Counted from the stretch's first letter, positions 17,592-48,573 are shown. The stretch is DNA of 64,000 bases from an uncultured Chryseobacterium sp. (GCA_966211705.1 CBIHOC010000010.1:8339-72338), one strand, 5' to 3'. Made by a program: numbers and translations. Notes: generated from the sequence alone by a model not told the origin.

Positions 17592-17629
17592 TCCCTATCA
17601 ACTCAAACTAAACTTTTAAAAACCAAACT

Positions 17630-19510: not shown

Positions 19511-19528
19511 TTGTAAACAAAGAGAGAA

Positions 19529-22997: not shown

Positions 22998-23429
22998 ATG
23001 GCAGAAAATAAGTTTATAAAAAGCAGCGCTGCGTTTCTCGGGAGAGGCTGGGGATTTCCTGTCACTTTTTCCCGCGGCATCAACGGTGTCAGCATGGTGG
23101 AAAGCGAAGAAGATATTCGGAGCAGCCTTGAGCTTCTTCTTGCAACAGCACTCGGTGAGCGCGTTATGCAACCGGGATATGGCTGCAATCTCGACAAGCT
23201 GATTTTTGAACCGCTCGACACGACATTCAGCACATTTATCACGGACCAGATACGAACAGCCGTTTTATATAATGAGCCCCGCGTGACACTGGAAACTGTG
23301 AATTATTTCCTGGATAACCTTGCAGGCCGCATTGATATCTCGATCGATTATACAATTGTGGCAACGAATAACAGGGCCAACCTGGTCTACCCATTCTATC
23401 TCAACGAAGGAACTGACATTTCACAATGA
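22998..23429 (+). CDS. gp25-like baseplate wedge protein (GPW_gp25 family, Afp9-like).
   Basis: GRGWGFPV...EEDIRSSLELLLATALGERVMQPGYGC signature of gp25/lysozyme-like baseplate proteins. Confidence 0.8.
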   Translation: MAENKFIKSSAAFLGRGWGFPVTFSRGINGVSMVESEEDIRSSLELLLATALGERVMQPGYGCNLDKLIFEPLDTTFSTFITDQIRTAVLYNEPRVTLETVNYFLDNLAGRIDISIDYTIVATNNRANLVYPFYLNEGTDISQ

Positions 23430-33320: not shown

Positions 33321-36300
33321 ATGAGTACTTCTCACCCGATATTCCAGGACAACCAGGTTCTGACCAGCCAGCAACTTAACTTTTTGCGGGATTATCTTGA
33401 CGAGCAGGTTCGTCTTACCCGCGCCAAGCTGATCGGCATCGGCGTAACCAACGGGCTCCACGTGAGCTCCAACTACGACGCCGTAGCCGATACGCTCAGC
33501 GAAATATATATTTCCTGCGGCGCCGCCGTATCGTCGGAAGGTTACCTGATGACGCTCGGGCAATGCACGATCAACCGGTACAGGGATTATACGCTTCCGC
33601 TGGGCCAGGTGTACGAACCGTTCACCGGGAACGACGCGACCCTCGACATTACGCTGTACGAACTGCTGACCCCGACCGCCGCCACGTTGCCGTCGGATAC
33701 GGTTACATTGCTCAGCGACAACCCGGGGAGCTTCTACAACGACATGGTCGTACTGCTCTTTGTTGAGTTCTTCGACATGGAAAAGGATTCCTGCCTCGGC
33801 GGAAAATGCGAAGAGTTCGGCATCTCGCGCACGTACACGCTGCGCAAGCTGATGCTCAGCAAGGCCCACGCCAACATCGTCCTCAGCAGGGCGCCCGGGG
33901 TCCTGTTCGACCCGCTCTATCCCACGAAATACGGCCTTGACGACATCATCATGCGCCGCACGCTGTTCGACCCGGCCCTGCCGCACAGCAATAACTATAC
34001 GGACTTTTCGCTGAACTACGCGACGACGTTCAGGAGCGACATTTTCGTCGACATGATCCAGCTGCTCAAGGATACATACACGGTTTACAAACCACTGCTT
34101 GAGGAACATTACAACAGCAATAACCCGTTCAACGATCCCGACATTACTACGCTCGTAGGCACGTGGACCAACTTCCTGAACGGCTCCTCGACCGGCCCGG
34201 CTTATCTCGGCATCCAGTATTTCTACGACTTCGTCAAGGACCTGATCCTCGCGTACAATGAATTCTGCGGCGTGGCTTTCGAGCTGGCCTCGGAATGCTG
34301 CGTGAACATGACGCGTTTCCCGCGCCACGTGTTCATCGGTGAAGTGATCCCGACCGGCATCTGCGGACCGACGCCGTATCGCCAGGAATTCATTTACTCC
34401 GAGCTGCACGACAGCCAGAAGCTGCTCCTGGACGAAGCGGTCATGCTTCACAAGCGTATGGTGCTCCAGCTTCGCAGCTTCGACTTCGACCTCATCAACA
34501 ACCCGGTGGTGGCGAACCCGCTCATCCACATCACGCCCAGCTTCGAGAAGAAAGGCCGTCTCAGCGAACGCTCCGTTCCTTATTATTACGACCTCAACAA
34601 CAACTTCCCGTTCGTTTCCACCGCGCCGGTAACTACCGGGCAACTTTCGGCACACTGGCGCTATGAGCTGGCCCGCAAATGCAAAACGATCGGCGGGGTT
34701 ACGCAGATCCTTGCTTACGGCAACCAGGAGGTCAACCAGTTGGTCGACCAGGGACCGATCAAAACGCCGCTGCGCTACGACCTCGACCAGACCAATTTTT
34801 TCCGGATCGAAGGTCATCTCGGGAAGAGCTACGTGACTGTCAAACAAACCATCGAGGATAAAAAGCACCAGTTCGATCTCCCGTTCAATATCGTGGCGCT
34901 CCGCCTCCAGGGAGAAGCGTTCGACCAGATCGAAGAGCGCTGCAGCTTTGAAGACCTGCGGCTGGAGTATTCGACGACGCGGGCGAGCTTCATCTGCAGG
35001 ATTGACAATTATTGCCAGCGGATCGCGCAGCAGGCTTCGCCGGGACAATTCTGGTCGACACTCATCACGGACGCCAATGCCGTCACCGGCAGTTCGTCGG
35101 TTGCGTTCAATCCTCCCGCTTCCTTCAGCGGCGACCTGGGCGACGTGGGTATCGGCGGGGCCGGCAGCACGCAACGGCAGGCGGGCACCGGCAATCCTGC
35201 AGTGGTCATCGTCAACCGCGGTAAGCCGCTGGAGCTCCTTGCGCAGGATTTCTACGATACCGCCGACGACCTTTGCACGAAGCTCAACCTCGTGAAGGGC
35301 CTCCTGCCTTTCGATTTCAAAGCATTCAACTACGGCGCAGATATCGCGGCCATCGACGACAGCTTCATCAAATCGTGGATCGAAGCCGTCAACCTGGCGA
35401 TCGACGCGAAAGTCGCTTTTGCACGCGTGCTCGACTTTATCGCGCGCTCCCCGAAATCGCGTCCTTCGGCAGAAGTTTATTTTGCGCTTTCCCAGTACGC
35501 GGCGGAAGTGATCGATATGTATAACGAGATCATCCAGGACTGCACCTACAAGGAGTTCGAGATGCTTTATTATACCTATCGTTACCGGCTGAACTACCTG
35601 CAGCAGAACGATCCGCTGCTGTTCTCCAACTTCATCCGCAAGCACCCCGGCGTCGATCACAAAGCCGGCGTGGCGCCCGGCGGAACGTTCATCATCGTGT
35701 ACAACGGCGACAACGTTTCGATCAACATCCAGAACATCGAGCAGGCCATACTTTTCGCCGAGAACATCAACGATCTCGAATGCCAGCGCAACGTGCTGAT
35801 GGCAAAACCGATGCGTTCGAAGGAAGATAATCTCGTGCTGGCCAACATCAATTTCCAGCTCAACCAGTGTTTCGAGCTCGAGGCCAGCCTGACCTCCGAA
35901 GCCGTATTCCTCAATCCTTCGCCCACCATCCAGCAGATCCTCATCCAGGAAGATTGGGTTATCGCCGATTTCGCGCTGCCTTATCTCTGCTGCTGCGACT
36001 GCGATTGCGGCGATATCCCCGCTCCTGCCCTGGCCGACCTCGCGCTGCCCGAGCTCAACCCGGTGCTGGCGCCCGGCGTTACGGTGCCGCTGTTCGTACA
36101 GTACAACATGGGCGATTACGCATTCGCCAACCCGATCGATACTTCGATGGAAGGCTGCACGCTCAACGTGGTCCCGCTCAACATCGACGTCGAGAACCAC
36201 ATGCGTTACGATTCGACCGCCGGCGACAACTTCGTGCTGAAGTTCATCGTCAACGGCGAGCTCCGTACGCCGAAACCCTCCACCACTTCGCTCATCGATA

Positions 36301-36554
36301 CCATCTTCACCACGCAGGGCGGCAAGGCGGAGATCGTTTCGATCTCTTCGAACATCATGCGTTTCCGCTACACGCCGTACGTCGGCTTCGTCGGCGTCGA
36401 CCGCTGGCAGTTCATGTTCGAAGTCTACAGCGGTGAGACCAGGATGCTCGTCTCCACACCGGGCGAAGTTGCAGTACACGTAATGAACCAGTGTACCGTC
36501 GTTCCGCCGCTCGAATCAGGAGAGACCCTGCCGCCTGCGGAGCCGACGTTGTAA
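33321..36554 (+). CDS. Large eCIS-associated protein, 1077 aa. Last structural gene before the cargo array.
   Basis: Long ORF. The antisense 1065-aa ORF is Arg/His-rich and spurious. Contains a Cys-rich CCCDCDCGD segment. Confidence 0.6.
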   Translation: MSTSHPIFQDNQVLTSQQLNFLRDYLDEQVRLTRAKLIGIGVTNGLHVSSNYDAVADTLSEIYISCGAAVSSEGYLMTLGQCTINRYRDYTLPLGQVYEPFTGNDATLDITLYELLTPTAATLPSDTVTLLSDNPGSFYNDMVVLLFVEFFDMEKDSCLGGKCEEFGISRTYTLRKLMLSKAHANIVLSRAPGVLFDPLYPTKYGLDDIIMRRTLFDPALPHSNNYTDFSLNYATTFRSDIFVDMIQLLKDTYTVYKPLLEEHYNSNNPFNDPDITTLVGTWTNFLNGSSTGPAYLGIQYFYDFVKDLILAYNEFCGVAFELASECCVNMTRFPRHVFIGEVIPTGICGPTPYRQEFIYSELHDSQKLLLDEAVMLHKRMVLQLRSFDFDLINNPVVANPLIHITPSFEKKGRLSERSVPYYYDLNNNFPFVSTAPVTTGQLSAHWRYELARKCKTIGGVTQILAYGNQEVNQLVDQGPIKTPLRYDLDQTNFFRIEGHLGKSYVTVKQTIEDKKHQFDLPFNIVALRLQGEAFDQIEERCSFEDLRLEYSTTRASFICRIDNYCQRIAQQASPGQFWSTLITDANAVTGSSSVAFNPPASFSGDLGDVGIGGAGSTQRQAGTGNPAVVIVNRGKPLELLAQDFYDTADDLCTKLNLVKGLLPFDFKAFNYGADIAAIDDSFIKSWIEAVNLAIDAKVAFARVLDFIARSPKSRPSAEVYFALSQYAAEVIDMYNEIIQDCTYKEFEMLYYTYRYRLNYLQQNDPLLFSNFIRKHPGVDHKAGVAPGGTFIIVYNGDNVSINIQNIEQAILFAENINDLECQRNVLMAKPMRSKEDNLVLANINFQLNQCFELEASLTSEAVFLNPSPTIQQILIQEDWVIADFALPYLCCCDCDCGDIPAPALADLALPELNPVLAPGVTVPLFVQYNMGDYAFANPIDTSMEGCTLNVVPLNIDVENHMRYDSTAGDNFVLKFIVNGELRTPKPSTTSLIDTIFTTQGGKAEIVSISSNIMRFRYTPYVGFVGVDRWQFMFEVYSGETRMLVSTPGEVAVHVMNQCTVVPPLESGETLPPAEPTL

Positions 36555-36624
36555 AGAGTAACGACCGGGCGCAGTTTTGAGTTGACGATCGTGAACAGAT
36601 GAGTTTTGTTTAAACGGGATAGCC

Positions 36625-37445
36625 ATGTTCGCTGAACCGCAGCAGAAGAACGTATCGCAATTGCAATCCCCGCAGTCGCAATCGCCCCACATCCAGGCAA
36701 AGCTGGAAGTAGGCGCCAAAGACGACCCGCAGGAGAAAGAAGCAGATGCCGTCGCCGACTCGGTGATGCGCATGAGCGAAAGTTCCGGCGCTGCAGGCGA
36801 TGCAACCGGCGTAAAGGCGCAGCAGGAAAGCCCCATGGCCCGCCTGCTGCGCCGTCATCCCGACGCGCCACGCCCGCAAATCATCCACCGTTTGGCCGAC
36901 GCGCCGAAAGCCCAGCCTGTTCAACGCGCGCCCGCAGCAATACAAGGCCCCGCATCACCCGCCCTCCGCAAAAAAGAAGGCGAAGAAAACGCCATTGCGA
37001 AAGCGCCGGAGCATGGGGCAGTGCTGCGAATGCACGATGCAGACGAAGAAACGGTGCAGAAGAAAGAGGATGAGGAAAGTGTGATGAAGATGGACGATGA
37101 GGAAGGTCTGCAGAAGAAAGACGAAGAAGAGAGCGTGATGAAAATGGACGACGGCGGAAAAGGCGGCACCGCTCCGGCTGCTGTCGAGCAAGGCATTCAG
37201 TCCGGCAAAGGCCAGGGAAACCCGCTCCCTGAAAATGTACAGCAGGACATCGGCGGAAAGATGGGCGCGGATTTGAGTGATGTGCGTGTGCATACGGGAA
37301 GCAACGCGCATGAGATGTCCACCGCGATCAACGCGAAAGCGTTCACGCACGGGCAGGATGTGTATTTCAAGAACGGAAATTATGATACCTCGAGCAGTTC
37401 GGGGAAGAAGTTATTGACGCACGAGCTGACGCATACGCAGCAGCA
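36625..37445 (+). repeat. About 820-bp segment duplicated at about 97% identity at 42313-43133. Covers the shared N-terminal part of toxin genes 3 and 4.
   Basis: Direct comparison of the two nucleotide stretches shows only scattered substitutions from the ATG through the HExxH motif. Confidence 0.8.
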
Positions 37446-39261
37446 GAAGGCGCCCGGCGTGCAAAGGAAGGTGCAGCGGGGGTTCTGGGGGGATGTCTGG
37501 GAAGGTGTTAAATCGGTCGGAAACTTTGTATACGAAAATACCGGCCTCAAGACGATCGTCGAAACCGGCAAAGACATTTATCACTGGGCCGTTGATTCCC
37601 CCGAAGAGTTCCAGGCCTACATGCAGGGGAAGCTCAAAGATAAGATCGACGAGATCAGGGCCCAGAAAGAGCCGACCGTGATGTTTACCGCCAAATACTG
37701 GGCAATGAAAACCATTGCCATCGCGATGAATCCGCTGTCGATCTTCGCGATGCCTTCCACGCAGGCCATCTGGGATATTTTCCGGCAGGCCAAGCTGGGT
37801 TATTATGAGCACCTCTACAACCTGGGCAACGAATACGTCCTTAAGAAGAATGAAGACACCGGTAAAATGGAGCGCGTGAAAAACGAAAGCTTCAAAAAGG
37901 GTGGATATGCCGAGGTGTTCTCGAACCAGATGCGCAACATGCTCGATCCCCGCTTTATGCTGGGCGAAGTGGTCGGCATCTTTAAAGGCATCGGCGGCTG
38001 GTTCGTCGACCTGTGGGAGATGATCAAATGGTTCGGTGAAATGATCTGGGGCGGCATCAAAGGCACCTGGAACCTGCTTGTCAATTTTGAGCCGCCTGCA
38101 TTTATGACACAAGCTGCCGATCTCGCAACATCAGCCGGTGCCTGGTTCAAAGAGAACGGGAAAGCAATCATGGAAGAGCTCGGCATGCTGCTCCAGAATC
38201 CCACCAAGCTCAAGGAGGTCCTCGCTGACCTGAGAGCTGCGATCAAAACCGGCGCAGAGGGCCTCGCGTACGGAGCCGGCCAGGGCATGGCCGCGCTGCA
38301 GGTGAAGATCATGAGCATGAGCGCTTACGACCAGGGCGAGATGGTGGGCAAAGCCATCGGCTACCTCATCCCCGAGATCATCATCGCCGTGTTTAGCGGC
38401 ACCATCGTGAACTGGATCAAAGGCGGCGTGAAAGCGCTGCAGGTTTTCGGCTCGGCGCTCAAAGGCCTCAAAGCCATCAAGGCGCTCATGAACGGCGCGC
38501 GCGGCGTGATGAATGCTTTTGAGAAAATGGGCCGCCTGTTCAAGGCCCTTGGCAGCAAGATCGGCGGCGCACTCGGCAAGGCGTTCGACAATGTGATGGA
38601 TTTCTTCAAAGGGATTTTGAAATGGGGAGATGAGGCGCCGGCAGGTGCGGTGGATGATGTGCATGCGCCGCATGACCGGACGCCGGACGGGCCGGATGGG
38701 CCGAGGAATGATGGGCCGGATGGGCCGAAGAATAAGCCCGACGCCGACAACGCTATGCGGAATTTAGCGTACGGAGAGATGGTAGCGGAAGTGATACAGA
38801 GTAATGCAGCGGATGAACCGATCGCGAAGTTCAAGAGCGATATTTATAAAATAAAACGTCATTTCCCGATCGTTAAGGCATTCAAGTTTGTTCCGGATGG
38901 AGCTGGAGGATTATACGTTTATATGAAAGCTAGCCCATGGCGACTTGGAGGGCATAAGAAGGCACCCAAATATTCTCCCACTTCAAAACACCAAAAAGGA
39001 GGATGGGGAACTGAAATGGATCTAGACGACATAACAGCTCAACATGTGTTAGACAACTCAACGGTACTCGGAAAACAGAGCTATGGCTATCATAATGGAA
39101 AAATATATGAATTCCAATATGATAATGTCGGCGGATGGCATGGGTATCCTATACCGTCAATTCAACTTATTTCAAAATCAGGAGGCACGAAAATTTTGAG
39201 GCAGTGGTTAAAAGATGGTATCTTGTCAAAACCTGATTATAATAAGTTAATTGGTGGGTGA
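36625..39261 (+). CDS. DUF4157 N-terminal domain eCIS cargo toxin, 878 aa, with the conserved hydrophobic junction segment and an AT-rich variable C-terminal toxin domain.
   Basis: Contains HExxH (LLTHELTHTQQQ). N-terminal ~270 aa are near-identical to those of 42313-45096. Has the junction motif GYLIPEIIIAVFSGTIVNWIKGG. GC content drops sharply at about 38760. Confidence 0.75.
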   Translation: MFAEPQQKNVSQLQSPQSQSPHIQAKLEVGAKDDPQEKEADAVADSVMRMSESSGAAGDATGVKAQQESPMARLLRRHPDAPRPQIIHRLADAPKAQPVQRAPAAIQGPASPALRKKEGEENAIAKAPEHGAVLRMHDADEETVQKKEDEESVMKMDDEEGLQKKDEEESVMKMDDGGKGGTAPAAVEQGIQSGKGQGNPLPENVQQDIGGKMGADLSDVRVHTGSNAHEMSTAINAKAFTHGQDVYFKNGNYDTSSSSGKKLLTHELTHTQQQKAPGVQRKVQRGFWGDVWEGVKSVGNFVYENTGLKTIVETGKDIYHWAVDSPEEFQAYMQGKLKDKIDEIRAQKEPTVMFTAKYWAMKTIAIAMNPLSIFAMPSTQAIWDIFRQAKLGYYEHLYNLGNEYVLKKNEDTGKMERVKNESFKKGGYAEVFSNQMRNMLDPRFMLGEVVGIFKGIGGWFVDLWEMIKWFGEMIWGGIKGTWNLLVNFEPPAFMTQAADLATSAGAWFKENGKAIMEELGMLLQNPTKLKEVLADLRAAIKTGAEGLAYGAGQGMAALQVKIMSMSAYDQGEMVGKAIGYLIPEIIIAVFSGTIVNWIKGGVKALQVFGSALKGLKAIKALMNGARGVMNAFEKMGRLFKALGSKIGGALGKAFDNVMDFFKGILKWGDEAPAGAVDDVHAPHDRTPDGPDGPRNDGPDGPKNKPDADNAMRNLAYGEMVAEVIQSNAADEPIAKFKSDIYKIKRHFPIVKAFKFVPDGAGGLYVYMKASPWRLGGHKKAPKYSPTSKHQKGGWGTEMDLDDITAQHVLDNSTVLGKQSYGYHNGKIYEFQYDNVGGWHGYPIPSIQLISKSGGTKILRQWLKDGILSKPDYNKLIGG

Positions 39262-39823
39262 CATGGAAAAGTTATACTTCGAACTCACACCTTGTGAGCA
39301 TCCATATGCAAATGAACCCAGCTCAAAAGCTGATGCCTGGAGTATAATTGCAATGAAGCACCTTTCTCTAGGTAAAGCTCATGCTATTTTTGAATGGCAA
39401 TGGGATGCCTTTCCGGTACTTGAGTGGTTTTTTACAACTAAGGAAGCTATGCTAACAGAAAACTTTCCATTTAATACGATTGAAGGAAGGTGTATTGCGG
39501 AGTGCAGGACGAAGCTGTATGCCTATGATTCATTTTTAAACGAGAAGGAAGAAGACGATTACCTCCTCAGCTTAGAAAACTATTTTTCAAAACACAGCTT
39601 TACGCTTCCGGGCACTCCTTTGCCGTTATTTTATATCGGCTTATTCAAGGGCAAAGGCGACATCTCTTTTTACAATTCAACAAATGAGCTTGAATACTAT
39701 TCCTTTAATATGCCATCGTTTATTAACGACACGGAAGAAACTATTAATATTTTTCTTATGGAATGGAAAAAGGAGTACGCACGGGATCTGGGATTAGAGA
39801 GATTAGCAACCATACTTAAATAA
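39251..39823 (+). CDS. Hypothetical protein, 190 aa. Probable cognate immunity protein.
   Basis: Overlaps the toxin stop. AT-rich. Followed by the cassette repeat. Confidence 0.5.
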   Translation: MVGDMEKLYFELTPCEHPYANEPSSKADAWSIIAMKHLSLGKAHAIFEWQWDAFPVLEWFFTTKEAMLTENFPFNTIEGRCIAECRTKLYAYDSFLNEKEEDDYLLSLENYFSKHSFTLPGTPLPLFYIGLFKGKGDISFYNSTNELEYYSFNMPSFINDTEETINIFLMEWKKEYARDLGLERLATILK

Positions 39824-39870
39824 CAGGGCTGAATACAGCGAAGTAAGCGGGAAGGGATGCAGACTCGATT

Positions 39871-39995
39871 TTCACTCAGGCAGGCGCCGCGGGAAAACAG
39901 CATGCGATTAGAATCGCATGTTTTGGTATGAAGTTACGAACGGCTTTCCCGAAAATCAATTTTAATTTTCAGCACACGAGCAGAGTGAAAAGGTC
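39871..39995 (+). repeat. Cassette-boundary intergenic repeat, plus-orientation copy 1.
   Basis: ttcactcaggcaggcgccgcgggaaaacagcatgcgattagaatcgcatgttttggtatgaagttacgaacggctttcccgaaaatcaattttaattttcagcacacg, with an internal near-palindrome. Confidence 0.75.
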
Positions 39996-40001
39996 GGTTA
40001 C

Positions 40002-40976
40002 GTGATCGGCTACCTCATCCCCGAGATCATCATCGCCGTGTTTAGCGGCACCATCGTGAACTGGATCAAAGGCGGCGTGAAAGCGCTGCAGGTTTTCGGC
40101 TCGGCGCTCAAAGGCCTCAAAGCCATCAAGGCGCTCATGAACGGCGCGCGCGGCGTGATGAATGCTTTTGAGAAAATGGGCCGCCTGTTCAAGGCCCTTG
40201 GCAGCAAGATCGGCGGCGCACTCGGCAAGGCGTTCGACAATGTGATGGATTTCTTCAAAGGGATTTTGAAATGGGGCGATGAGGCGCCGGCGGTTGCGGT
40301 GGATGATGTGCATGCGCCGCATGACCGGACGCCGGATGGGCCGGATGGGAAGAAGAATAAGAATGATCGTGATGATAATGAGTCAAAAGCAGCGGAACTG
40401 CTAAAGGCAAAAGCAATCTTAGAGTTTAATAATAAAAGTGGAAATTTAGGATTATTAAAGACGCAGCTTTCAGTCTTAGATTTTCGTTCTGATTTAATTA
40501 AACGATTTGAATATCGGCCTGATGGAGACGATGTGAATGTTTACATGATTGCCAGTGAAAATTATGTAGGAAAATATTCTGTCAGAGCACGTAGGAGCAA
40601 TCCGAATTCTCCAAAAAGGACAATTAAACACAAAGGAATAGATCATACGGGAGGAAGGATAGTAAAAAAGACTAAAACAAAAGTAGATTATATAATGAAG
40701 GACAGCTCAGAAGCAATGAATTGGGCAAGAAAACAACTTGGACATAATACAAAAAAAATATATGAAAATGGGAAACTAGTAGGCTGGGAAAATGTAACAA
40801 ATGGCAATAAGGTAAAATGGGGGCATTATGATTGGTACCAAGGAGGTGGTTCGTCAAACTTTCCACATCTAAACTATGAGTTCAATGGGAGTAAACTGAA
40901 AGGGCATTTATTTCTTGAAGATAAAATTCATAATACAGGCCTAATGGATGATTTTATTGCGTATTTTGATCTTTAA
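40002..40976 (+). CDS. Orphan toxin C-terminal cassette, 324 aa. Begins with the conserved junction segment, then a distinct AT-rich C-terminal toxin domain.
   Basis: First about 115 aa (GYLIPEIIIAVFSG...WGDEAPA) are near-identical to residues about 574-690 of the 36625-39261 product, then diverge. Confidence 0.55.
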   Translation: MIGYLIPEIIIAVFSGTIVNWIKGGVKALQVFGSALKGLKAIKALMNGARGVMNAFEKMGRLFKALGSKIGGALGKAFDNVMDFFKGILKWGDEAPAVAVDDVHAPHDRTPDGPDGKKNKNDRDDNESKAAELLKAKAILEFNNKSGNLGLLKTQLSVLDFRSDLIKRFEYRPDGDDVNVYMIASENYVGKYSVRARRSNPNSPKRTIKHKGIDHTGGRIVKKTKTKVDYIMKDSSEAMNWARKQLGHNTKKIYENGKLVGWENVTNGNKVKWGHYDWYQGGGSSNFPHLNYEFNGSKLKGHLFLEDKIHNTGLMDDFIAYFDL

Positions 40977-40979
40977 ATA

Positions 40980-41396
40980 TTGTCCATGGATATCTCATCA
41001 ATAATTCCGAAGAGCGGAGACTCCATTCTTATGGCAACTTCGTGGAATATGGGTATTCTCCATATTGAATTAACACTGGGAGAAACAGATGAGCGTATAC
41101 ATTTATCTATAGCAACAGATCGGGTCTTTTTTTCGCCAAAAGTGTATGATAGCGGATCTGATAAGACATGCTTTATTGAATTTAAGCTCCTTGAAGAAAT
41201 AATCCCGCCACAAAACACACTATATCTTCCACCTTCGGATTTTCATTTACTCATGGAGCAAATCAATAATCAGTTTCATATTGCATATGGGCTTAAAAAG
41301 AGCGAATATGGTTATTTTTTTTCCCTCAGAGGTTATCAAAGACTGGTGGCTTGTGTTATTAAAAACCACAATGATATAAAGGTGTCTGGGATTTAA
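40980..41396 (+). CDS. Hypothetical protein, 138 aa. Probable immunity protein for the orphan cassette.
   Basis: Starts 4 bp after the cassette stop. AT-rich. Confidence 0.5.
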   Translation: MSMDISSIIPKSGDSILMATSWNMGILHIELTLGETDERIHLSIATDRVFFSPKVYDSGSDKTCFIEFKLLEEIIPPQNTLYLPPSDFHLLMEQINNQFHIAYGLKKSEYGYFFSLRGYQRLVACVIKNHNDIKVSGI

Positions 41397-41405
41397 AAAT
41401 AGTGC

Positions 41406-41520
41406 TTTTCACTCAGGAATGCGCCGCGGGAAAACAGATTATAATCGCATGTTTTGGTATGAAGTTACGAACGATTTTCCCGAAAATCAATTTTAATTTT
41501 TCGCACACGACTAGGGCGAA
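41406..41520 (+). repeat. Cassette-boundary intergenic repeat, plus-orientation copy 2.
   Basis: ttttcactcaggaatgcgccgcgggaaaacagattataatcgcatgttttggtatgaagttacgaacgattttcccgaaaatcaattttaatttttcgcacacg. Confidence 0.75.
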
Positions 41521-41691
41521 ATGCTCGGCAAAGCCATCGGCTACCTCATCCCGGAGATCATCATCGCCGTGTTCACCGGCACCATCGTGAATCGCCTTTT
41601 ACCCACAAAAGGCTACCGGAAACCAAATGAAAAATGTGTTTGGACGCGGAGAAATGCTCGAAACTATAAATGTCTTAAAAGCATACGCTAA
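41521..41691 (+). pseudogene. Truncated orphan cassette remnant: a 56-aa ORF retaining only the junction motif (MLGKAIGYLIPEIIIAVFTGTIVN) before diverging and stopping.
   Basis: Homology to the junction segment for about 25 codons, then unrelated sequence and a stop. The downstream small ORF at 41627-41791 is in a different frame. Confidence 0.45.
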
Positions 41692-41787
41692 ATCCCAAGG
41701 GTTTGCTAAATTGCGAATACAATGGATAAGGGCACAAAAGAGTTCTTCTGCTAACCCGGGGCATTCTTTTGACAAAACATTTGATTT

Positions 41788-42045
41788 ATGACAAGTCCGA
41801 ATTTCATAACCTTTGTAAAACAACATTATTCGCCTGAGGCGAATAATATTGAAGAAGTTATCCTTGGTTTGAAAACCATTGGAGCCTCACAAATGCTGAG
41901 CGTAAAAGCGCTTATGACTGCATTGGGTTTGTCCTTGAAAGAAGCGGATCATTTAGTTATCAACTCAGAAGCATGGAAAGAGCGCAAGGAAGACGTCGAG
42001 CGTTTCAGGAATGACCTTGGAGAGTTTCTTGAAAATTTAGAATAA
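41788..42045 (+). CDS. Hypothetical protein, 85 aa. Possible orphan immunity gene.
   Basis: Small ORF between the truncated cassette and the next repeat copy. Confidence 0.35.
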   Translation: MTSPNFITFVKQHYSPEANNIEEVILGLKTIGASQMLSVKALMTALGLSLKEADHLVINSEAWKERKEDVERFRNDLGEFLENLE

Positions 42046-42153
42046 TAATGGGCGTTGTCAGGAACAGGGGGCGTTGTTAAGAATTACTTCCTGACGACTC
42101 CATTTTTTTGTCGGAAAATACGATTGCAAATCAACCCTATAATCCTCTGTCCC

Positions 42154-42272
42154 TTTTCACTCAGGAATGTGCCGCGGGAAAACAGATTATAATCGCATGT
42201 TTTGGTATGAAGTTACGAACGATTTTCCCTGGAAGTCAATTCTGATTTCCACCTGCGAGCAGGGCGAAATAG
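42154..42272 (+). repeat. Cassette-boundary intergenic repeat, plus-orientation copy 3, here preceding a full-length toxin gene.
   Basis: ttttcactcaggaatgtgccgcgggaaaacagattataatcgcatgttttggtatgaagttacgaacgattttccctggaagtcaattctgatttccacctgcgagcagggcgaaatag. Confidence 0.75.
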
Positions 42273-42312
42273 TTTTTATATTAATTCAATTAACCCCTAA
42301 CCCCTGATCCCT

Positions 42313-45096
42313 ATGTTCGCTGAACCGCAGCAGAAGAACGTATCACAATTGCAATCGCCGCAGTCGCAATCGCCCCACATCCAGCCGAAGCTGGAAGTGG
42401 GCGCCAAAGACGACCCGCAGGAGAAAGAAGCAGATGCCGTCGCCGACTCGGTGATGCGCATGAGCGAAAGTTCCGGCGCTGCAGGCGATGCAACCGGCGT
42501 AAAGGCGCAGCAGGAAAGCCCCATGGCCCGCCTGCTGCGCCGCCATCCCGACGCGCCCCGCCCGCAAATCATCCACCGTTTGGCCGACGCGCCGAAAGCC
42601 CTGCCTGTTCAACGCGCGCCCGCAGCGATACAAGGCCCCGCATCGCCTGCCCTCCGCAAAAAAGAAGACGAAGAAAACGCCATTGCGAAAGCGCCGGAGC
42701 ATGGCGCGATCCTGCGAATGCACGATGCAGACGAAGAAACGGTGCAGAAGAAAGAGGACGAGGAAAGCGTGATGAAGATGGACGACGAGGAAGGTCTGCA
42801 GAAGAAAGAGGATGAAGAGAGCGTGATGAAAATGGACGACGGCGGAAAAGGCGGCACCGCTCCGGCTGCTGTCGAGCAAGGCATTCAGTCCGGCAAAGGC
42901 CAGGGAAACCCGCTCCCTGAAAATGTACAGCAGGACATCGGCGGAAAGATGGGCGCGGATTTGAGTGATGTGCGTGTGCATACGGGAAGCAACGCGCATG
43001 AGATGTCCACCGCGATCAACGCGAAAGCGTTCACGCACGGGCAGGATGTGTATTTCAAGAACGGAAATTATGATACCTCGAGCAGTTCGGGGAAGAAGTT
43101 ATTGACGCACGAGCTGACGCATACGCAGCAGCAGTCCGCCCGCGGCGGAGGCGGGATGAACAGGAAGATCCAGCGGTTCGAATCTAACGAGCACCGGAAA
43201 ATGGGCGATGAAGGCTCGGGAGGAAAACAGATCGTTTTATCACCTTATTTCACGATTTCATATGGCGATATGACGGCTCTTGCCGGAGATTGGTTCGGCT
43301 CTGTAGAAGAAATCACCGAGTTGGCTAAAAAGCGGGGTAAAGTTACATTCGGCAAAACAGTTGAGGATATACTCTCTTATGGAAATAAGTATCAGTATTT
43401 CAACCAACCCGGTACAGTTGATGAGATCAAATATGCTGTTGTTGTCGGCATACACGGGAAAACGAATTATAAAAATATTTTTGGTGCCGAGGTTCCTAAG
43501 AAAGTGGATGCCCGGGCTAAACTTTTATTGCAACGGAACTGGGACCATTTTACAAATCCCAGGGCCGGGGATGCTCAGCTGGCCCATAAGGATAAGCTTA
43601 ACCTGAGAGAAAATGATTTTCCTCTGAATAATGCGACGGCATATAGAGATAATCATGAAAGAGCAATACAGGAAGCGGTCAAGGCCGGGAAAAATAACAG
43701 CGGCTTGAATACAGCAATGTTATATGAATCGTTCGCCAGCCATTTTTTAACAGATGCTTATGCCTCGGGGCACATACGGGCAGAACGATTCGATATTGCA
43801 AAATATTGGAATGAGAAATACCCCATGTTTTATTTTAATATGCTGCGCTGGATAGCTGAAAAAATGGCGCAACATATTCAAAAAAACAAATACTACGGAC
43901 TCACTAAGCATTTTGTTTTCGGGCAGGTTGTTGATACGCTCAACGAGATGCTGGGTAGTGATCCTGAAACTTTATTGGGAGATATTATCGGGGGGGCAAT
44001 TCATGATCTCGACAATAAACGTGGTGTTGCTTCAAAAGTAGATAAAGCACAAAAAGCGGTTCGGTTGTTTGGAGATGGCCAGGTGCTGGACGACCAGGAC
44101 AGGCTGCTGGCCCAGGGCATGGAAACGTTTAATCTGGTTACTGCGGCAGTAAAAGTCAGTCTTAAAGATATTACTGCAGCTTACGAAAAAGGGAAAAACG
44201 GGCAGGATGTCAACAGCGTCTTAAAATCGCTTCAAACAAAAGATCTGTACAAAGCCGAACAACTATGGCCAGCAGCGGTAAGCGACACCGACCCGTTGCA
44301 GAAGGAATCTCCAGCCGTCAAATGGAAAGCTGACACTTACGAAAAACTGATTGAGCTGGCGGATGTCAAGGACGCTATCAAATTGCTCCTGGACGAAAAG
44401 ACAAAGACGATCAAGGACTCCGTCACTTTCGACGAGGATTATAAAAAAACGGCTTTCGAAGAAAGTGTAGTAACCAATCTCCAGGGAGATGCAGGTATTG
44501 AATCATTGAAACAAATCATCCATTATTACCCTGGGATTATATTAGACCTCAGCGGATTCTTCGGTTCAGATGACGACGATGAAGCATATGACTATTATAA
44601 AGAAACGAAAGACAGAAGTGCATTAGGCTCGCTGACAAGCAAACAACGCGAAGGCCTTATTAAAAAAGCATTGAGCGGTCCAACTGTCGGTGATGACGAC
44701 GTCATGATTGCCGATATCCTGAGCAATACACCAGAGGCTGATGTATATGATATAATTACCGGGCTCGATGAGGATGGCTATACCGGATGGGCCTGGATAT
44801 ATGACGATTTGTCGGGGCAAGAATTAGAAGATGTAATCCGTAAAGCCGGACCTGCCTATTGGAAACAAGCCACGTTCGATGAAAAATGGAATGAATGCTA
44901 CAGGATGATCGGGATAACCAATGTTTATTTTCCGGGCATCGCTTCTCTTTCTGACTTCGAAAACAAGGTTGTTATGGTTATTTTACGATCGGATAAGACC
45001 AAGATTGAGAACCAGCTTCTGAATGTCGATTTCCAGTTTGAGAAAGTGCTTAAGAGTGCATATAAATACGAAATAAGAGAGCTTGTTACTCCCTGA
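42313..45096 (+). CDS. DUF4157 N-terminal domain toxin, 927 aa, with a large distinct C-terminal domain. Paralog of 36625-39261.
   Basis: N-terminal ~270 aa are near-identical to those of 36625-39261, including HExxH. Sequence downstream of about 43133 is unrelated and AT-richer. Confidence 0.75.
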   Translation: MFAEPQQKNVSQLQSPQSQSPHIQPKLEVGAKDDPQEKEADAVADSVMRMSESSGAAGDATGVKAQQESPMARLLRRHPDAPRPQIIHRLADAPKALPVQRAPAAIQGPASPALRKKEDEENAIAKAPEHGAILRMHDADEETVQKKEDEESVMKMDDEEGLQKKEDEESVMKMDDGGKGGTAPAAVEQGIQSGKGQGNPLPENVQQDIGGKMGADLSDVRVHTGSNAHEMSTAINAKAFTHGQDVYFKNGNYDTSSSSGKKLLTHELTHTQQQSARGGGGMNRKIQRFESNEHRKMGDEGSGGKQIVLSPYFTISYGDMTALAGDWFGSVEEITELAKKRGKVTFGKTVEDILSYGNKYQYFNQPGTVDEIKYAVVVGIHGKTNYKNIFGAEVPKKVDARAKLLLQRNWDHFTNPRAGDAQLAHKDKLNLRENDFPLNNATAYRDNHERAIQEAVKAGKNNSGLNTAMLYESFASHFLTDAYASGHIRAERFDIAKYWNEKYPMFYFNMLRWIAEKMAQHIQKNKYYGLTKHFVFGQVVDTLNEMLGSDPETLLGDIIGGAIHDLDNKRGVASKVDKAQKAVRLFGDGQVLDDQDRLLAQGMETFNLVTAAVKVSLKDITAAYEKGKNGQDVNSVLKSLQTKDLYKAEQLWPAAVSDTDPLQKESPAVKWKADTYEKLIELADVKDAIKLLLDEKTKTIKDSVTFDEDYKKTAFEESVVTNLQGDAGIESLKQIIHYYPGIILDLSGFFGSDDDDEAYDYYKETKDRSALGSLTSKQREGLIKKALSGPTVGDDDVMIADILSNTPEADVYDIITGLDEDGYTGWAWIYDDLSGQELEDVIRKAGPAYWKQATFDEKWNECYRMIGITNVYFPGIASLSDFENKVVMVILRSDKTKIENQLLNVDFQFEKVLKSAYKYEIRELVTP

Positions 45097-45150
45097 AAAA
45101 CGCGAAAGAATATCTCAAAATAGCTACATTGAAAAACAAATCCGGTTAAA

Positions 45151-45621
45151 ATGAAATGGCTGATTTCTTTGTTTGTTGTTTTAATAGGCGTTGGCCTGTT
45201 ATATGCACCGGTTGCTTCCGTTAAACGGGACACTATTGATATTTCTTTCAAGGGGATAACTCAAAAAACCTATCCCGGTACAGTAACTGTATCCGGTAAA
45301 AAAATACTTAACGATTGGCCCTCTGCAGCACTTGTGATTTTCTCCCTGTTTTTGCCCTTGCTCCTCCAGGTCCAGGGATTATTCTTTTCCGAACAATCAT
45401 GGAATATCCTCCGTTTTCTTTTACTTTTTGAGCTGCTGATTGCCCTGGCCGGTATTTTTTCCACCTGGCTCTCCATCGAAACGATACTGATGGTCTCATC
45501 CGGCACATGGCGCTGGGGACGTTACGCGCTGTTGTTCATCGAAACGTTTTATGCTGTCGTTTTACTTTTACTGGTGACCCCTGCAGGTAGAAATCTGCGT
45601 ACACTGTTGCTTTATCGTTAG
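45151..45621 (+). CDS. Hypothetical polytopic membrane protein, 156 aa. Probable immunity protein.
   Basis: Four or five hydrophobic helices (LISLFVVLIGVGLLY...). Immediately downstream of the toxin. Confidence 0.5.
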   Translation: MKWLISLFVVLIGVGLLYAPVASVKRDTIDISFKGITQKTYPGTVTVSGKKILNDWPSAALVIFSLFLPLLLQVQGLFFSEQSWNILRFLLLFELLIALAGIFSTWLSIETILMVSSGTWRWGRYALLFIETFYAVVLLLLVTPAGRNLRTLLLYR

Positions 45622-45622
45622 T

Positions 45623-45706
45623 CTTTTCACTCAGGAATGCGCCGCGGGAAAACAGCATGCGATTATAATCGCATGTTTTGATATGAAGTTACGAACGGCT
45701 TTCCCC
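45623..45706 (+). repeat. Cassette-boundary repeat, plus-orientation copy 4. Its 3' part is deleted so the repeat is fused directly to junction-motif coding sequence.
   Basis: cttttcactcaggaatgcgccgcgggaaaacagcatgcgattataatcgcatgttttgatatgaagttacgaacggctttccc runs straight into ccgagatcatcatcgccgtg. Confidence 0.7.
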
Positions 45707-45953
45707 CGAGATCATCATCGCCGTGTTTAGCGGCACCATCGTGAACTGGATCAAAGGCGGCGTGAAAGCGCTGCAGGTTTTCGGCTCGGCGCTCAAAGGC
45801 CTCAAAGCCATCAAGGCGCTCATGAACGGCGCGCGCGGCGTGATGAATGCTTTTGAGAAAATGGGCCGCCTGTTCAAGGTCCTGGGCAGCAGGATGAGCA
45901 AACTGTATGGAATGTACAGACCGAATGCCCGTTATTTATCAACAAATCCTTGA
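45706..45953 (+). pseudogene. Start-codon-less orphan toxin cassette fragment (PEIIIAVFSGTIVNWIKGG...KMGRLFKVLGSRMSKLYGMYRPNARYLSTNP).
   Basis: In-frame homology to the junction segment begins inside the repeat with no upstream ATG. About 60 aa identical to 36625-39261, then a short divergent tail. Confidence 0.5.
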
Positions 45954-46004
45954 CTTTGCTGAAATTATTCATAACTTATGTATCATTTTTAACCCTTACG
46001 CAAT

Positions 46005-47540
46005 ATGTTCCAGCACAAAACAATGAACAGGCCCGGCGATAGTCCGGTTTCCCTGAATTATGCCCGGCTGACGCAAGACGATAACCGGCTTACGCCCGGA
46101 ACCACGACCAACGCCGCTGCCGATAAAATGGACGAGGAGAAAAGCATGAATGCTTCGTACAACATGGCCGACGACGAGAAAACAATGAACGCGGCCGGAA
46201 GCATGGATGAAGAGAAAACAATGAACGCGGCCGGAAGCATGGATGAAGAGAAAACAATGAATGCCGCAACCGGAAGCATGGAGGAAGAAAAATCCATGAA
46301 TGCCGCAACCGGAAGCATGGAGGAAGAAAAATCCATGAACGCCGCCGGGGAGAAAGACGAAGAAAAAAGCATGAACGCTTCGTATTCCGCAAACATGGCC
46401 GACGACGAAAAGACCATGAACGCGGCGGGAAGCTCGATGGACGAAGAGAAATCGATGAACGCCGGCGGAGATAAAATGGATGAAGAGAAAAGCATGAATG
46501 CGGCGGGAAAAATGGATGAAGAGAAAAGCATGAATGCCGCCAGCGATAAAGTGGAAGACCTGAACCAGTCAAAGGGTAAGCCGGCCGGCAAAGCGTTTGG
46601 CAGTTCCGGATCGGCGATCAAAAGTGCGGGCAGGGCAATCGGGCTTATCGGGGCAAATTATCTTGCCGCTTCCAGGATAAAAGCATCCATCGCGCCTGTC
46701 GACGGGAAGTTCGGCAAGGCAGGCGTGAAGCGCATTCCCCCGCGCGTGGATACGGACGTGGCCGTTAAAGTTACGGGCATACCGGAAGGATCAAAGGGAT
46801 TGTTCTTTAAGGTCAACCAGGTGGATGGAAACAATGACGGTACGGTAACGGTCAACGGGCAGACTTCCGTTTATATCAAAAACGATCAAACGCTGAAGCT
46901 GCGCGGGAACAAACAGACGGAGCCGGGACACGCCTCGCACCTTTGCCTGGCAGGTGCTTATAACGGGATAAACGTCGCCTACAGCAATCATTTTTCCGTA
47001 GCCGCTTTCCCGGAAAGCATCGAATCGACGACCGTTTCCCCGCACTATGCATCCGGGCCGAACTATGTACACATGGGTGGAATTTACAACCTGCCGTCGA
47101 AATCGGATTCAGGCGTAGACACCGACCTCGGCAAGACCTGGATTTCTGAAAGTGTGAGCGTTGCTTCGAAATCGGGGGTGTTTGCGACCTCAACGGAATC
47201 GAATACGGGCTTTATGAGACCTTCTCCTCACTTCGATCATAACATCTCCAAATTCGGCGACAGCGCGCAGGGTTTGAAAGCGGGCTTAAACACCGGCAAC
47301 CTGATCGCTTCCGAAAAAACCAATCACCAGTGTTTTTATTTCGCCTGCGACCGTACCGGTATCACAACGAACCTTGCTACTGCGCCGCTCATCCCTAAGT
47401 CGGGATTCAAACTGAAACGCACTTTTTCCAAAGTAGGTAACCGCACGTATTTCCATATTTCCCGTTCCTCACTGGCCGTCGGAAATGCAACAGGCGCTTC
47501 GGTGGCGACCGCATCACCCGGAAGCATTGAACTTATTTAA
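46005..47540 (+). CDS. Hypothetical protein, 511 aa. N-terminal about 150 aa consist of about 12 tandem acidic repeats (M/A)DEEK(S/T)MNAAG, followed by a globular C-terminal domain.
   Basis: Obvious about 33-39-bp tandem nucleotide repeats at about 46130-46545. The C-terminal domain is not recognised. Confidence 0.55.
   Translation: MFQHKTMNRPGDSPVSLNYARLTQDDNRLTPGTTTNAAADKMDEEKSMNASYNMADDEKTMNAAGSMDEEKTMNAAGSMDEEKTMNAATGSMEEEKSMNAATGSMEEEKSMNAAGEKDEEKSMNASYSANMADDEKTMNAAGSSMDEEKSMNAGGDKMDEEKSMNAAGKMDEEKSMNAASDKVEDLNQSKGKPAGKAFGSSGSAIKSAGRAIGLIGANYLAASRIKASIAPVDGKFGKAGVKRIPPRVDTDVAVKVTGIPEGSKGLFFKVNQVDGNNDGTVTVNGQTSVYIKNDQTLKLRGNKQTEPGHASHLCLAGAYNGINVAYSNHFSVAAFPESIESTTVSPHYASGPNYVHMGGIYNLPSKSDSGVDTDLGKTWISESVSVASKSGVFATSTESNTGFMRPSPHFDHNISKFGDSAQGLKAGLNTGNLIASEKTNHQCFYFACDRTGITTNLATAPLIPKSGFKLKRTFSKVGNRTYFHISRSSLAVGNATGASVATASPGSIELI
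46130..46545 (+). repeat. About 36-bp tandem repeat array inside the CDS, encoding the MDEEKSMNAAG units.
   Basis: Repeating atggatgaagagaaaa(c/g)(a/c)atgaa(c/t)gc(g/c)gc(c/g)gg... units. Confidence 0.7.
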
Positions 47541-47545
47541 ACAAT

Positions 47546-48055
47546 ATGCCGCTCTTTTCGCCTGGAATGTTTCGCATAAGCTTCAATACCTTTTTCTCTT
47601 TGAGGAATTTGTCATTAGGCATGCTGTTCCTTTTTTATTCATGCACGAATGAAAACCAGGCGGCCGAACCAGGAATGAATGAACCGAAGATGGAGTTAAA
47701 TGTCAAAATGGAGAACCAGGGCCTTTTTGACAGCGATACTGTTAACATGAGCGCCCATGTCATCAATAGGTCGTCTGAGCCGATTACGATCCTGGGAAGC
47801 CAAGTGGTGCCTTCATTTGAATCTACAAGCTGGAAAAGGAACGATATGAACGTAACTAATTATAACGGTCCCGCAACCTCCCTCGTCGCTCCCGGGGATT
47901 CTGCTTATTTCGGCTATCAGTTGAATGAGTTCTTTGATAACATTCCCCCCGGCCAAAGCACACTTACTGTTAAACTTAACGTCTTTCATGAAGGCAGGAC
48001 TAATCCGGTAATGCTTTCAGACCAAATAACCGTATTGGTGAAGAATTCAGAATAA
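47546..48055 (+). CDS. Putative lipoprotein, 169 aa. Paralog of the next gene.
   Basis: Signal/lipobox-like LFLFYSC. Shared motif Y.GP...L.PGDS.Y..Y.L..FF...PG...L...L.......P..LSD...V..K with 48087-48545. Confidence 0.5.
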   Translation: MPLFSPGMFRISFNTFFSLRNLSLGMLFLFYSCTNENQAAEPGMNEPKMELNVKMENQGLFDSDTVNMSAHVINRSSEPITILGSQVVPSFESTSWKRNDMNVTNYNGPATSLVAPGDSAYFGYQLNEFFDNIPPGQSTLTVKLNVFHEGRTNPVMLSDQITVLVKNSE

Positions 48056-48086
48056 CCTTTCCTTTCCCCATCGAATCCGTTTAAAC

Positions 48087-48545
48087 ATGGCGCTTCTTTT
48101 TCGCCTTTCCTGTATCGGAGCACTCACGTTGTTCTCCTGCACGTCTCCCGGCGACAGGAATCCTGTTATCCCTCCCACAGGCGCATTCACCGTTCACGCC
48201 TGCCCGGTGCGCGATTCCGTACCCGGCGACAGCATGATCATCCACATCGGCGTGCGAAACAGTTCGGCAGATACGATAGGCATTCGCGAAGACCTCACCA
48301 CCGTATCTTTTCTGCCGGTGAACGAGTGGACCAAACAAGGTCTGCGCGTCTTTTCCTACGACGGTCCCGGCAAGACCACGCTCATTCCCGGCGATTCTAT
48401 CGTTTACAATTATCACCTCGTCGATTTTTTCGCCGGTTTTACACCCGGGAAAAACAATCTCGTATTCCAGCTGAGTCTTTGGCCGCGCGCCGCGAAATCA
48501 CCGCTCGTGCTGAGCGATTCGCTGTCGGTGTTCATCAAAGAATAA
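48087..48545 (+). CDS. Putative lipoprotein, 152 aa. Paralog of the previous gene.
   Basis: Lipobox LTLFSC. Paralogy motif as above. Confidence 0.55.
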   Translation: MALLFRLSCIGALTLFSCTSPGDRNPVIPPTGAFTVHACPVRDSVPGDSMIIHIGVRNSSADTIGIREDLTTVSFLPVNEWTKQGLRVFSYDGPGKTTLIPGDSIVYNYHLVDFFAGFTPGKNNLVFQLSLWPRAAKSPLVLSDSLSVFIKE

Positions 48546-48573
48546 AATACTTTCCACTTTAATCCCTACTCCA

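Follow-up and report, generated by a model that had tools for sequence, protein, structure and literature searches.

A probable polymorphic toxin array with orphan cassettes inside the extracellular contractile injection system gene cluster of an uncultured Chryseobacterium

Described systems and the Chryseobacterium locus

In Rhs, CdiA and MafB loci (PMC4436062), a full-length toxin gene is followed by its immunity gene and, further downstream, by 5'-truncated modules that combine a C-terminal toxin domain (CT) with an immunity gene and in which part of the constant region is retained, so that recombination has a substrate. In Salmonella, an orphan rhs-CT has been recombined into the main gene (Koskiniemi 2014, as cited in PMC4436062). 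Here we describe a similar arrangement among cargo genes of an extracellular contractile injection system (eCIS), found in 64,000 nt of DNA from an uncultured Chryseobacterium sp. (GCA_966211705.1 CBIHOC010000010.1:8339-72338; this whole stretch is called the window). The region under study, positions 36625-45953, holds two full-length genes headed by the domain DUF4157, gene A and gene B, together with three 5'-truncated cassettes, orphans 1 to 3, that repeat an internal segment of gene A, the junction.

DUF4157 corresponds to the domain that Zhang et al. 2012 (PMC3482391) called PVC-metallopeptidase. That paper describes it as a constant head joined to variable toxin tails that evolve by recombination, proposes autoproteolytic release, and states that many PVC-type systems have no immunity genes. 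Geller et al. 2021 (PMC8213781) made DUF4157 a core marker of eCISs and called the frequent lack of immunity genes beside antibacterial eCIS toxins 'an intriguing mystery'. According to a preprint (bioRxiv 10.64898/2026.05.27.728243), the cargos Cgo1 and Cgo2 of the Algoriphagus machipongonensis system, AlgoCIS, share a disordered N-terminus and DUF4157 and have variable C-termini; the N-terminal domain is needed for AAA+-driven loading into the tube lumen, and DUF4157 is dispensable. In Halogeometricum borinquense, DUF4157 proteins are encoded in and beside the contractile injection system (CIS) cluster and their secretion is CIS-dependent; experiments showed that some of them have toxic activity, against which the next gene downstream protects (PMC11566945).

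The Chryseobacterium locus shares with Rhs, CdiA and MafB loci the order of full-length toxin gene and, probably, immunity gene, the downstream truncated modules that retain constant sequence, and the foreign base composition of the cassettes. A further likeness is the expression of an orphan toxin by a deletion-type recombinant, represented here by a candidate contig, L036. The locus differs from them in its constant region, which consists of the DUF4157 head and a novel helical body, and in its boundary, a hydrophobic-helix junction followed by a PDGPDG linker in place of a VENN or PxxxxDPxGL motif. It has no RHS, FHA or MafB_N domains: Pfam searches of genes A and B for RHS/YD repeats, FHA repeats with a VENN boundary and the MafB N-terminal domain returned eCIS_core alone. 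The locus operates as these families do and yet does not belong to them. Delivery is predicted to be by an extracellular phage-tail-like particle.

Like the PVC-metallopeptidase toxins of Zhang et al. 2012 and the eCIS-associated toxins (EATs) of Geller et al. 2021, the proteins studied here have an N-terminal DUF4157 with its HExxH motif and variable C-terminal toxin domains, and their genes lie in an eCIS/PVC-type cluster. Unlike those toxins, they come with genes that probably confer cognate immunity, with orphans arranged in an array and with a contig that may be a natural recombinant; the accessible portion of Zhang et al. 2012 describes no orphan cassettes for DUF4157 toxins, and the word 'orphan' is absent from Geller et al. 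2021 (PMC8213781). AlgoCIS is likewise a Bacteroidota eCIS with two cargos that have a similar disordered N-terminus and DUF4157 and different C-termini, as genes A and B do, whereas a cassette array, a junction repeat and immunity genes are not reported in the available part of that preprint. The haloarchaeal system resembles the present one in having DUF4157 genes within and beside the cluster and downstream partner genes, and differs in being archaeal and cell-bound, like a type VI secretion system, with no orphan modules reported (PMC11566945). A full-text literature search found no paper on orphan cassettes for eCIS or DUF4157 cargo, although a description elsewhere is possible. The novelty claimed in the initial annotation has to be scaled down, as Zhang et al. 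2012 (PMC3482391) had already defined DUF4157 proteins as polymorphic-like toxins that recombine. What is new is the orphan-array logic of polymorphic toxins on an eCIS cargo scaffold, a concept that the same paper anticipates.

Gene A, the junction and the orphan cassettes

Gene A (36625..39261, + strand) encodes a full-length eCIS cargo toxin, as we read it, of 878 amino acids. Its head, a disordered N-terminus followed by DUF4157 with the motif HELTH (36625-37459), leads into a helical body (37460-38326) and then, 1.7 kb into the gene, into the 383-nt junction (38327-38709), which begins with the most hydrophobic helix of the protein (residues 577-595). A proline-rich PDGPDG linker and a pre-toxin segment separate the junction from the C-terminal domain, CT-A (~38950-39258). 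The head recurs in gene B from the ATG on: in a self-BLAST, positions 36625-37459 and 42313-43147 are 96.9% identical over 835 nt, and the proteins show 6 substitutions in residues 1-274 and part directly after HELTHTQQQ, which bears out the near-identical head of about 270 residues first annotated for the two genes. PF13699 (eCIS_core/DUF4157) matches both at residues 200-276, gene A with 98 bits (E 3.6e-28) and gene B with 97 bits (E 6.6e-28) against a cut-off of 22, and HELTH is the HExxH motif of the family. The annotated switch to AT-rich sequence directly after the head does not hold for gene A, in which the first ~430 residues beyond the head, the body and junction, have the GC (guanine plus cytosine) content of the head; its last ~550 nt are indeed AT-rich (43% GC). 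Overall, heads, body and junction copies have 54-60% GC, and C-terminal domains and small genes 34-43%. This difference between the constant parts and the cassettes argues for a foreign origin of the cassettes.

A search of 5.8 billion clustered proteins with the body and junction of gene A (residues 277-700) returned only four relatives. One (P0001) is 62% identical and has DUF4157, body and junction, with a different C-terminus; a second (P0002, on contig L002 from a Bacteroidetes metagenome-assembled genome, MAG) is a body and junction relative whose full open reading frame (ORF) encodes 694 amino acids; the third is orphan 1 of the window itself; and the fourth (P0004) is an orphan-like protein of 295 residues that starts VFSGTIVNW and has another C-terminus again. 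When these sequences are aligned, they are conserved as far as ...FFKGI.KWG.E.P and continue into unrelated tails, so that five different C-termini stand behind homologous junctions in gene A, orphan 1, P0001, P0002 and P0004. Judged from sequence, this fusion of a constant region to unrelated C-terminal domains is the signature of a polymorphic toxin. Genome, metagenome and viral contig collections yielded no junction relative.

Downstream of gene A, self-BLAST detects three copies of the junction: 383 nt at 39976-40358 in orphan 1 (95.3% identical to gene A), 85 nt at 41507-41591 in orphan 2 (91.8%) and 192 nt at 45704-45895 in orphan 3 (98.4%). Coordinate arithmetic places all three in gene A's frame. 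Gene A and orphan 1 differ only at the two edges of the junction and have an identical core of 272 nt (38356-38627). Of the two full-length genes, gene A alone has the shared segment; gene B has none.

The orphans differ in how much follows the junction. In orphan 1 (39976..40976, +), the junction copy leads into a different toxin tip, CT-O1; its ORF (40002-40976, 324 amino acids) starts with a GTG within the junction. In orphans 2 and 3, stop codons come soon after the junction fragment. Orphan 2 (41507..41787, +) is a decayed stub in which 85 nt of junction run into non-homologous sequence with stops; a 54-residue ORF in another frame (41627-41791) may be its toxin remnant, and an 85-residue ORF (41788..42045, +), which matches no Pfam or NCBIfam family, is possibly the surviving immunity gene. 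Orphan 3 (45704..45953, +) consists of 192 nt of junction, 19 unrelated codons and a stop, with neither toxin nor immunity gene. In the closest relative, on the contig JGI 3300071358, the order is a 996-residue DUF4157 gene, genes of 137, 167, 111 and 85 residues, a 774-residue DUF4157 gene, a 161-residue gene, P0004 (295 residues) and a 159-residue gene. The 85-residue gene is thus in the same place, before the second DUF4157 gene, and the 167-residue gene has a weak SUKH-4 match. The intact orphan P0004 and the 159-residue gene hold the position that orphan 3 has in the window, and P0004 is truncated at the same point on its 5' side; orphan 3 is a decayed cassette. Of the three truncated cassettes first annotated, then, all three junction copies are there, one standalone cassette with constant sequence retains an intact CT and a partner gene, and orphans 2 and 3 are dead stubs. 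In another relative (JGI 3300050046), a 71-residue EndoU fragment lies between the two DUF4157 genes.

Each downstream junction copy, and also gene B, is preceded at its 5' side by an intergenic repeat of 82-120 nt. It matches at four places in the window, where shuffled sequences give none, and nowhere else in the 64 kb. Copies 1 (39869..39975) and 4 (45623..45703), both + strand, have an intact hairpin that is terminator-like on both strands, with an 8-bp palindrome that has an A-run on one side and a T-run on the other; copies 2 (41405..41506, +) and 3 (42153..42270, +) have lost one arm through a 6-nt deletion. Copy 3 is followed by about 20 nt of the 5' flank of the junction and then by the upstream region of gene B. 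Rfam families gave no match to it in a scan of 36000-48600, a viral contig collection gave none, and folding z-scores are weak except for copy 1. The dedicated boundary repeat first annotated is thus real as a DNA repeat, and it reads as a co-duplicated, terminator-like intergenic segment without demonstrated function.

Both swappable tips, CT-A and CT-O1, look like polymorphic-toxin modules. Ten homologues of CT-A were found; in one (P0008) the domain directly follows a PT-HINT domain (PF07591), and in another (P0009) the sequence before it ends ...VHN, which we take to be the C-terminal motif of HINT. An AlphaFold model of CT-A has a pLDDT (predicted local distance difference test) score of 91.8, and its fold resembles RNase toxins of the CdiA, YxiD, MafB and RelE-like kinds; CT-A is a candidate RNase-like toxin. 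CT-O1 has three homologues (P0015-17), one of which (P0017) is labelled 'uncharacterized protein RhaS with RHS repeats' in its source; the model of CT-O1 is fair (pLDDT 80), with no fold assigned. A weak match of CT-O1 to CHAP/LysK (E 0.33) among PDB sequences was ruled out, as CT-O1 has no cysteine, and nothing significant was found in PDB sequence searches with the C-terminal domains. The initial annotation looked to toxin hidden Markov models for these domains; Pfam, read up to E 10, has no match for any C-terminal domain or small gene, and NCBIfam none for the small genes.

Behind each of these tips lies a small gene. The candidate immunity gene of CT-A, immA (39263..39823, +; 186 amino acids from its ATG), belongs to no Pfam or NCBIfam family; its product is 39% identical to those of genes directly 3' of CT-A homologues in Logan contig SRR27187796_67127 (L004; E 1e-41) and in Flavobacterium sp. 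2755 (L003; 9e-28). Likewise, the candidate immunity gene of CT-O1, imm1 (40986..41396, +; 136 amino acids), has no Pfam or NCBIfam match, and the N-terminus of its product aligns with those of contig-truncated genes directly 3' of each of the three CT-O1 homologues; when compared pairwise by BLASTP, the gene on L006 gives E 3e-8 and that on L005 only a weak match (0.011). A downstream gene thus co-varies with the toxin domain in both cases, and because this linkage is conserved across unrelated N-terminal contexts, which is the usual comparative ground for inferring cognate immunity, immA and imm1 are probably cognate immunity genes. The small immunity-like gene annotated after each full-length gene finds support behind gene A and not behind gene B. 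Taken together, the five C-termini on one junction, the PT-HINT- and RHS-associated tips, the conserved partners and the recombinant contig described below uphold an orphan organisation of the Rhs/CdiA type on DUF4157 eCIS cargo.

The candidate switch and its alternatives

We consider it likely that the array is a polymorphic toxin and immunity locus with the eCIS as its delivery vehicle, in which orphan cassettes can replace the toxic tip of gene A. In this proposal, gene A would have three tiers: a loading head, made of the disordered N-terminus and DUF4157 and the same as on gene B; a helical body that ends in the hydrophobic-helix junction; and the short, AT-rich, RNase-like CT-A, horizontally acquired and neutralised in the producer by ImmA. 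By analogy with AlgoCIS, the disordered N-terminus would be the loading sequence seen by the AAA+ ATPase, which would thread the cargo into the tube lumen, and loading would not require DUF4157, which may instead have a part in processing or refolding the cargo. Once injected, the RNase-like toxin may be helped to its target by the body and the hydrophobic junction. Orphan 1 would be a reserve warhead with CT-O1 and Imm1, orphans 2 and 3 the decayed remains of earlier cassettes, and gene B a second, non-swappable cargo that has only the loading head in common. Because the junction core is identical over 272 nt, in frame and directly repeated, homologous recombination between gene A and orphan 1 would delete CT-A, immA and the intergenic repeat (1649 bp) and leave a full-length cargo armed with CT-O1, while gene conversion would maintain the identity of the junction copies. 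The repeat structure, the frames, the domain matches, the linkage of toxins to partner genes, the independent assembly and the existence of a contig of the recombinant type are observed; that the tips are toxic and act as RNases, that the partners give immunity, that the AAA ATPase loads the cargo into the tube and that L036 comes from real cells is what we infer from this pattern.

Independent assemblies bear on both the array and the switch. The ENA contig ERZ27336836 NODE_1708 (L001) is colinear with window positions 38356-47199 at 99.8% identity, with 18 single-nucleotide differences and no gaps. It runs in the order CT-A, immA, intergenic repeat, junction, CT-O1, imm1, orphan 2, gene B and orphan 3, and it repeats the copy-specific diagnostic sites at the junction edges. 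Three contigs come from another assembly, ERZ27336834. The largest (L037, NODE_2837; 5100 nt, coverage 4.71) spans window positions 42814-47913, with gene B from head position 502 on. The second (L036, NODE_5174; 3411 nt, coverage 4.47) follows the window over 37166-38709 and then, via the junction, over 39976-42225. It holds an in-frame chimera of the head, body and junction of gene A with CT-O1, followed by imm1, orphan 2 and the 85-residue ORF; its junction has 11 gene-A-type sites at the 5' edge and 7 orphan-1-type sites at the 3' edge, and it is the predicted 1649-bp deletion recombinant of gene A and orphan 1. The third (L035, NODE_38503; 1108 nt, coverage 2.33) covers window positions 38770-39877 and carries CT-A and immA only. 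Either L036 records a cassette switch that took place in nature, or the repeat led the assembler along this path; the half coverage of the loop contig L035 favours a mixed population, though it is only suggestive.

Several points weigh against our proposal. A deletion-type switch removes immA, so that the recombinant would be sensitive to the parental CT-A. L036 is exactly what a short-read assembler yields on skipping the loop at a perfect 272-nt direct repeat, and coverages in ERZ27336834 are so low (2-5x) that the half-coverage argument is no more than suggestive. Orphan-type repeats occur in one of the 27 other Bacteroidota DUF4157 loci that we sampled, a MAG (L010) described below. Finally, the orphan junction of the closest JGI relative has no full-length partner among the recovered homologues; therefore, orphans can be stranded fossils.

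This last point leads to the alternative that survives best, which we regard as possible but not probable, namely that the orphans are the inert remains of past displacement of the tip. Incoming cassettes would have taken the tip's place and pushed the old tip downstream, no switching would take place at present, and L036 would be an assembler path. Consistent with this, orphans 2 and 3 have decayed, the orphan of L010 carries a frameshift, an orphan stands in the JGI relative without a full-length gene that bears the junction, and L036 and L035, at their low coverage, are the set of contigs expected from an unresolved direct-repeat loop. The ORFs of orphan 1 and imm1, however, are intact, and L035 is covered about half as deeply as either of the contigs that flank it in ERZ27336834. 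The 272 nt of the junction core, moreover, agree at every position, whereas the adjoining intergenic repeats are only 85-95% identical; a divergence of 5-15% beside identical cores points to continuing gene conversion.

A reading that we think unlikely, and that is compatible with cassette switching, has the array kept mainly for its orphan immunity genes, imm1 and the 85-residue ORF, as protection against the eCIS toxins of neighbours, with the toxin fragments as by-products. The 85-residue ORF persists without a toxin and has its counterpart in the same place in the relative, and the intergenic repeats could provide transcription signals; yet a protective role of that ORF is conjecture, and orphan 1 retains a full-length, in-frame toxin and a perfectly conserved recombination substrate.

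More doubtful still is a stronger form of our own proposal, in which the junction is an actively homogenised payload switch, possibly together with the intergenic repeat, natural cells often swap the cargo tip and about half of the population in sample ERZ27336834 had already switched. If this were true, there would be heterogeneity resembling phase variation in what the particles inject, and the hydrophobic-helix junction would be a natural universal adaptor for arbitrary payloads on an eCIS loading head.

It is very improbable that the intergenic repeat is a specific recombination site that, with the junction, makes up a device for programmed cassette exchange. Such a device would fit the placement of its four copies, each of which immediately precedes a junction copy or gene B, with none elsewhere in the window, but the array contains no recombinase or integrase gene, every repeat is direct, the hairpin is gone in two copies, there is no Rfam match and little excess structure, and L036 has its breakpoint within the junction, outside the intergenic repeat. 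That the repeats and truncated copies come from one or two true genes wrongly assembled, an artefact which the initial annotation named as an outcome that would overturn it, can be all but dismissed: the metagenomes were assembled from short reads, contigs end where the repeats are (L001 begins at 38356, L037 at 42814) and the head of gene B in the window may be chimeric, but L001 independently crosses CT-A through orphan 3 without a gap, and both assemblies have copy-specific diagnostic sites at the junction edges.

Gene B, surrounding genes and related loci

Gene B (42313..45096, +; 927 amino acids) would be the second eCIS cargo, with a head like that of gene A, a conserved tail of about 650 residues and no junction. 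The tail (43135-45093) belongs to a family of 586 cluster representatives at E<=1e-3; DUF4157 heads all 9 members checked by Pfam and 20 of 36 aligned sequences. Gene B, whose tail is part of this large, conserved DUF4157 family, receives no cassettes and stands outside the cassette system. Invariant EH, NxxH, HxLxD....GH and HDxD motifs suggest that the tail is possibly a metal-dependent hydrolase and a candidate new toxin domain. It has no Pfam relative, a Pfam scan of 36 members found no common family beyond eCIS_core, and a profile of the tail against PDB sequences gave only an insignificant annexin-repeat match. A guess from the His/Asp motifs that the tail is a metal hydrolase like Het-C or phospholipase C was not confirmed.

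Directly behind gene B lies a gene for a multi-pass membrane protein of 156 residues (45151..45621, +). No homologue of it was detectable beside the gene B homologues in loci L012 and L017, which leaves unsupported the idea that it is a conserved or immunity partner of proteins of the gene B type. Within the head of gene B, positions 502-822 (42814-43134) are identical in the window to gene A (37126-37446), whereas L001 and L037, from two other assemblies, have 14 differences there, all of them synonymous, at third codon positions and leaving the protein the same. Either gene conversion made this stretch identical, in line with ongoing exchange between the repeats, or the window's assembly is chimeric at this point.

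The array sits inside the eCIS gene cluster. Family searches of the genes of the window revealed a complete cluster on the + strand: a Pvc16_N cap (14104-14703), two paralogous sheath genes (15843-19015), two gp19-type tube genes (19079-20032), CIS_tube-LysM (20207-20965), a VgrG-like spike (20962-22710), gp25 (22998-23429) and Baseplate_J (23426-26758). Between Baseplate_J and gene A lie three large genes that have no family match and end at 36554 (+). The initial annotation placed the array immediately downstream of the eCIS; however, because a gene for an AAA ATPase (48574-49923, +) and one for the CIS tape-measure protein, CIS_TMP (49898-51799, +), continue the cluster at 48574-51799, genes A and B have structural genes on their 5' side and eCIS genes on their 3' side, and the array does not lie beyond the end.

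A second pair of DUF4157-headed genes lies upstream on the minus strand, one of 1180 residues (2303-5845) and one of 926 (6735-9515) with an EndoU_bacteria C-terminus, the latter adjoining an eCIS-type AAA ATPase paralogue (9589-11151, -). The cluster thus has two AAA ATPase paralogues, one beside each cargo group. The two cargo genes have a common head of 1003 nt at 91.5% identity (repeat 5296-6297 and 8951-9920), and the repeat reaches about 450 nt 5' of the start codons. Before its EndoU domain, the 926-residue protein has a junction-like module (residues 692-770) that is 31% identical to the junction of gene A (E 6e-5). An ORF of 110 residues (6395-6727, -), directly after the EndoU toxin gene, is an immunity candidate. 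Two genes downstream of the 1180-residue gene is a Tpt1/KptA RNA 2'-phosphotransferase gene (1223-1762, -; PF01885, E 8.7e-33), whose product may serve in repair or in immunity, or may act together with a toxin.

Other genes of the cluster contain repeats or form pairs. A 608-residue gene (11529-13355) has an internal direct repeat of 315 nt at 81% identity (12193-12957). Just past orphan 3, at 46005-47540, is the gene for a 511-residue protein with about 12 tandem repeats of 12-13 residues, 'MDEEKSMNAAG' (46110-46560), which recall the acidic DEEESVMKMDD repeats in the heads of genes A and B; the protein has no DUF4157 and no family match, and it may serve as a further cargo or form part of the particle. 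Between the cargo array and the AAA ATPase gene, tandem paralogues of 169 and 152 residues (47546-48055 and 48087-48545) are about 29% identical; neither has a family match, and their hydrophobic N-termini, judged by eye, are possibly signal- or lipoprotein-like.

The survey of the 27 other Bacteroidota DUF4157 loci looked for a gene tail that is repeated in downstream non-genic sequence. Heads shared by neighbouring paralogues are common among them, and L010 was the only locus with an orphan-type repeat. Its genes run in the order eCIS-type AAA ATPase, 1080-residue DUF4157 toxin, 266-residue gene, orphan and 120-residue gene. The orphan repeats 165 nt of the pre-toxin linker at 88% identity, in a frameshifted state, and its domain is Tox-REase-2 (PF15646; 36.5 bits against a cut-off of 27.6, E 6.6e-9). 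On L004, positions 442-5300 hold a gene for an eCIS-like AAA ATPase, then one for a 1050-residue PG_binding_1...Toxin-deaminase protein, an 88-residue gene, an orphan CT-A homologue (P0007) with its ImmA homologue, and another junction stub; the junction at 2853-3057 is repeated at 3916-4050 and 5097-5270. The 1050-residue full-length toxin has no DUF4157 match, so L004 looks like an orphan array on a cargo without that match.

The locus defines two unnamed toxin families and two unnamed immunity families, and its gene B brings to light a large unnamed domain family associated with DUF4157 (586 cluster representatives; P0019-P0167). It also indicates two boundaries at which eCIS cargo is modular, one where the loading head ends and one at the junction, which would be useful for engineering programmable eCIS payloads, and public reads already exist for testing the candidate recombinant. 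The locus bears, too, on whether eCISs are used against other bacteria. Immunity genes, an orphan array and modules of the Rhs/HINT type are hallmarks of weapons between related bacteria, and they therefore argue that this Bacteroidota eCIS may be an interbacterial weapon.

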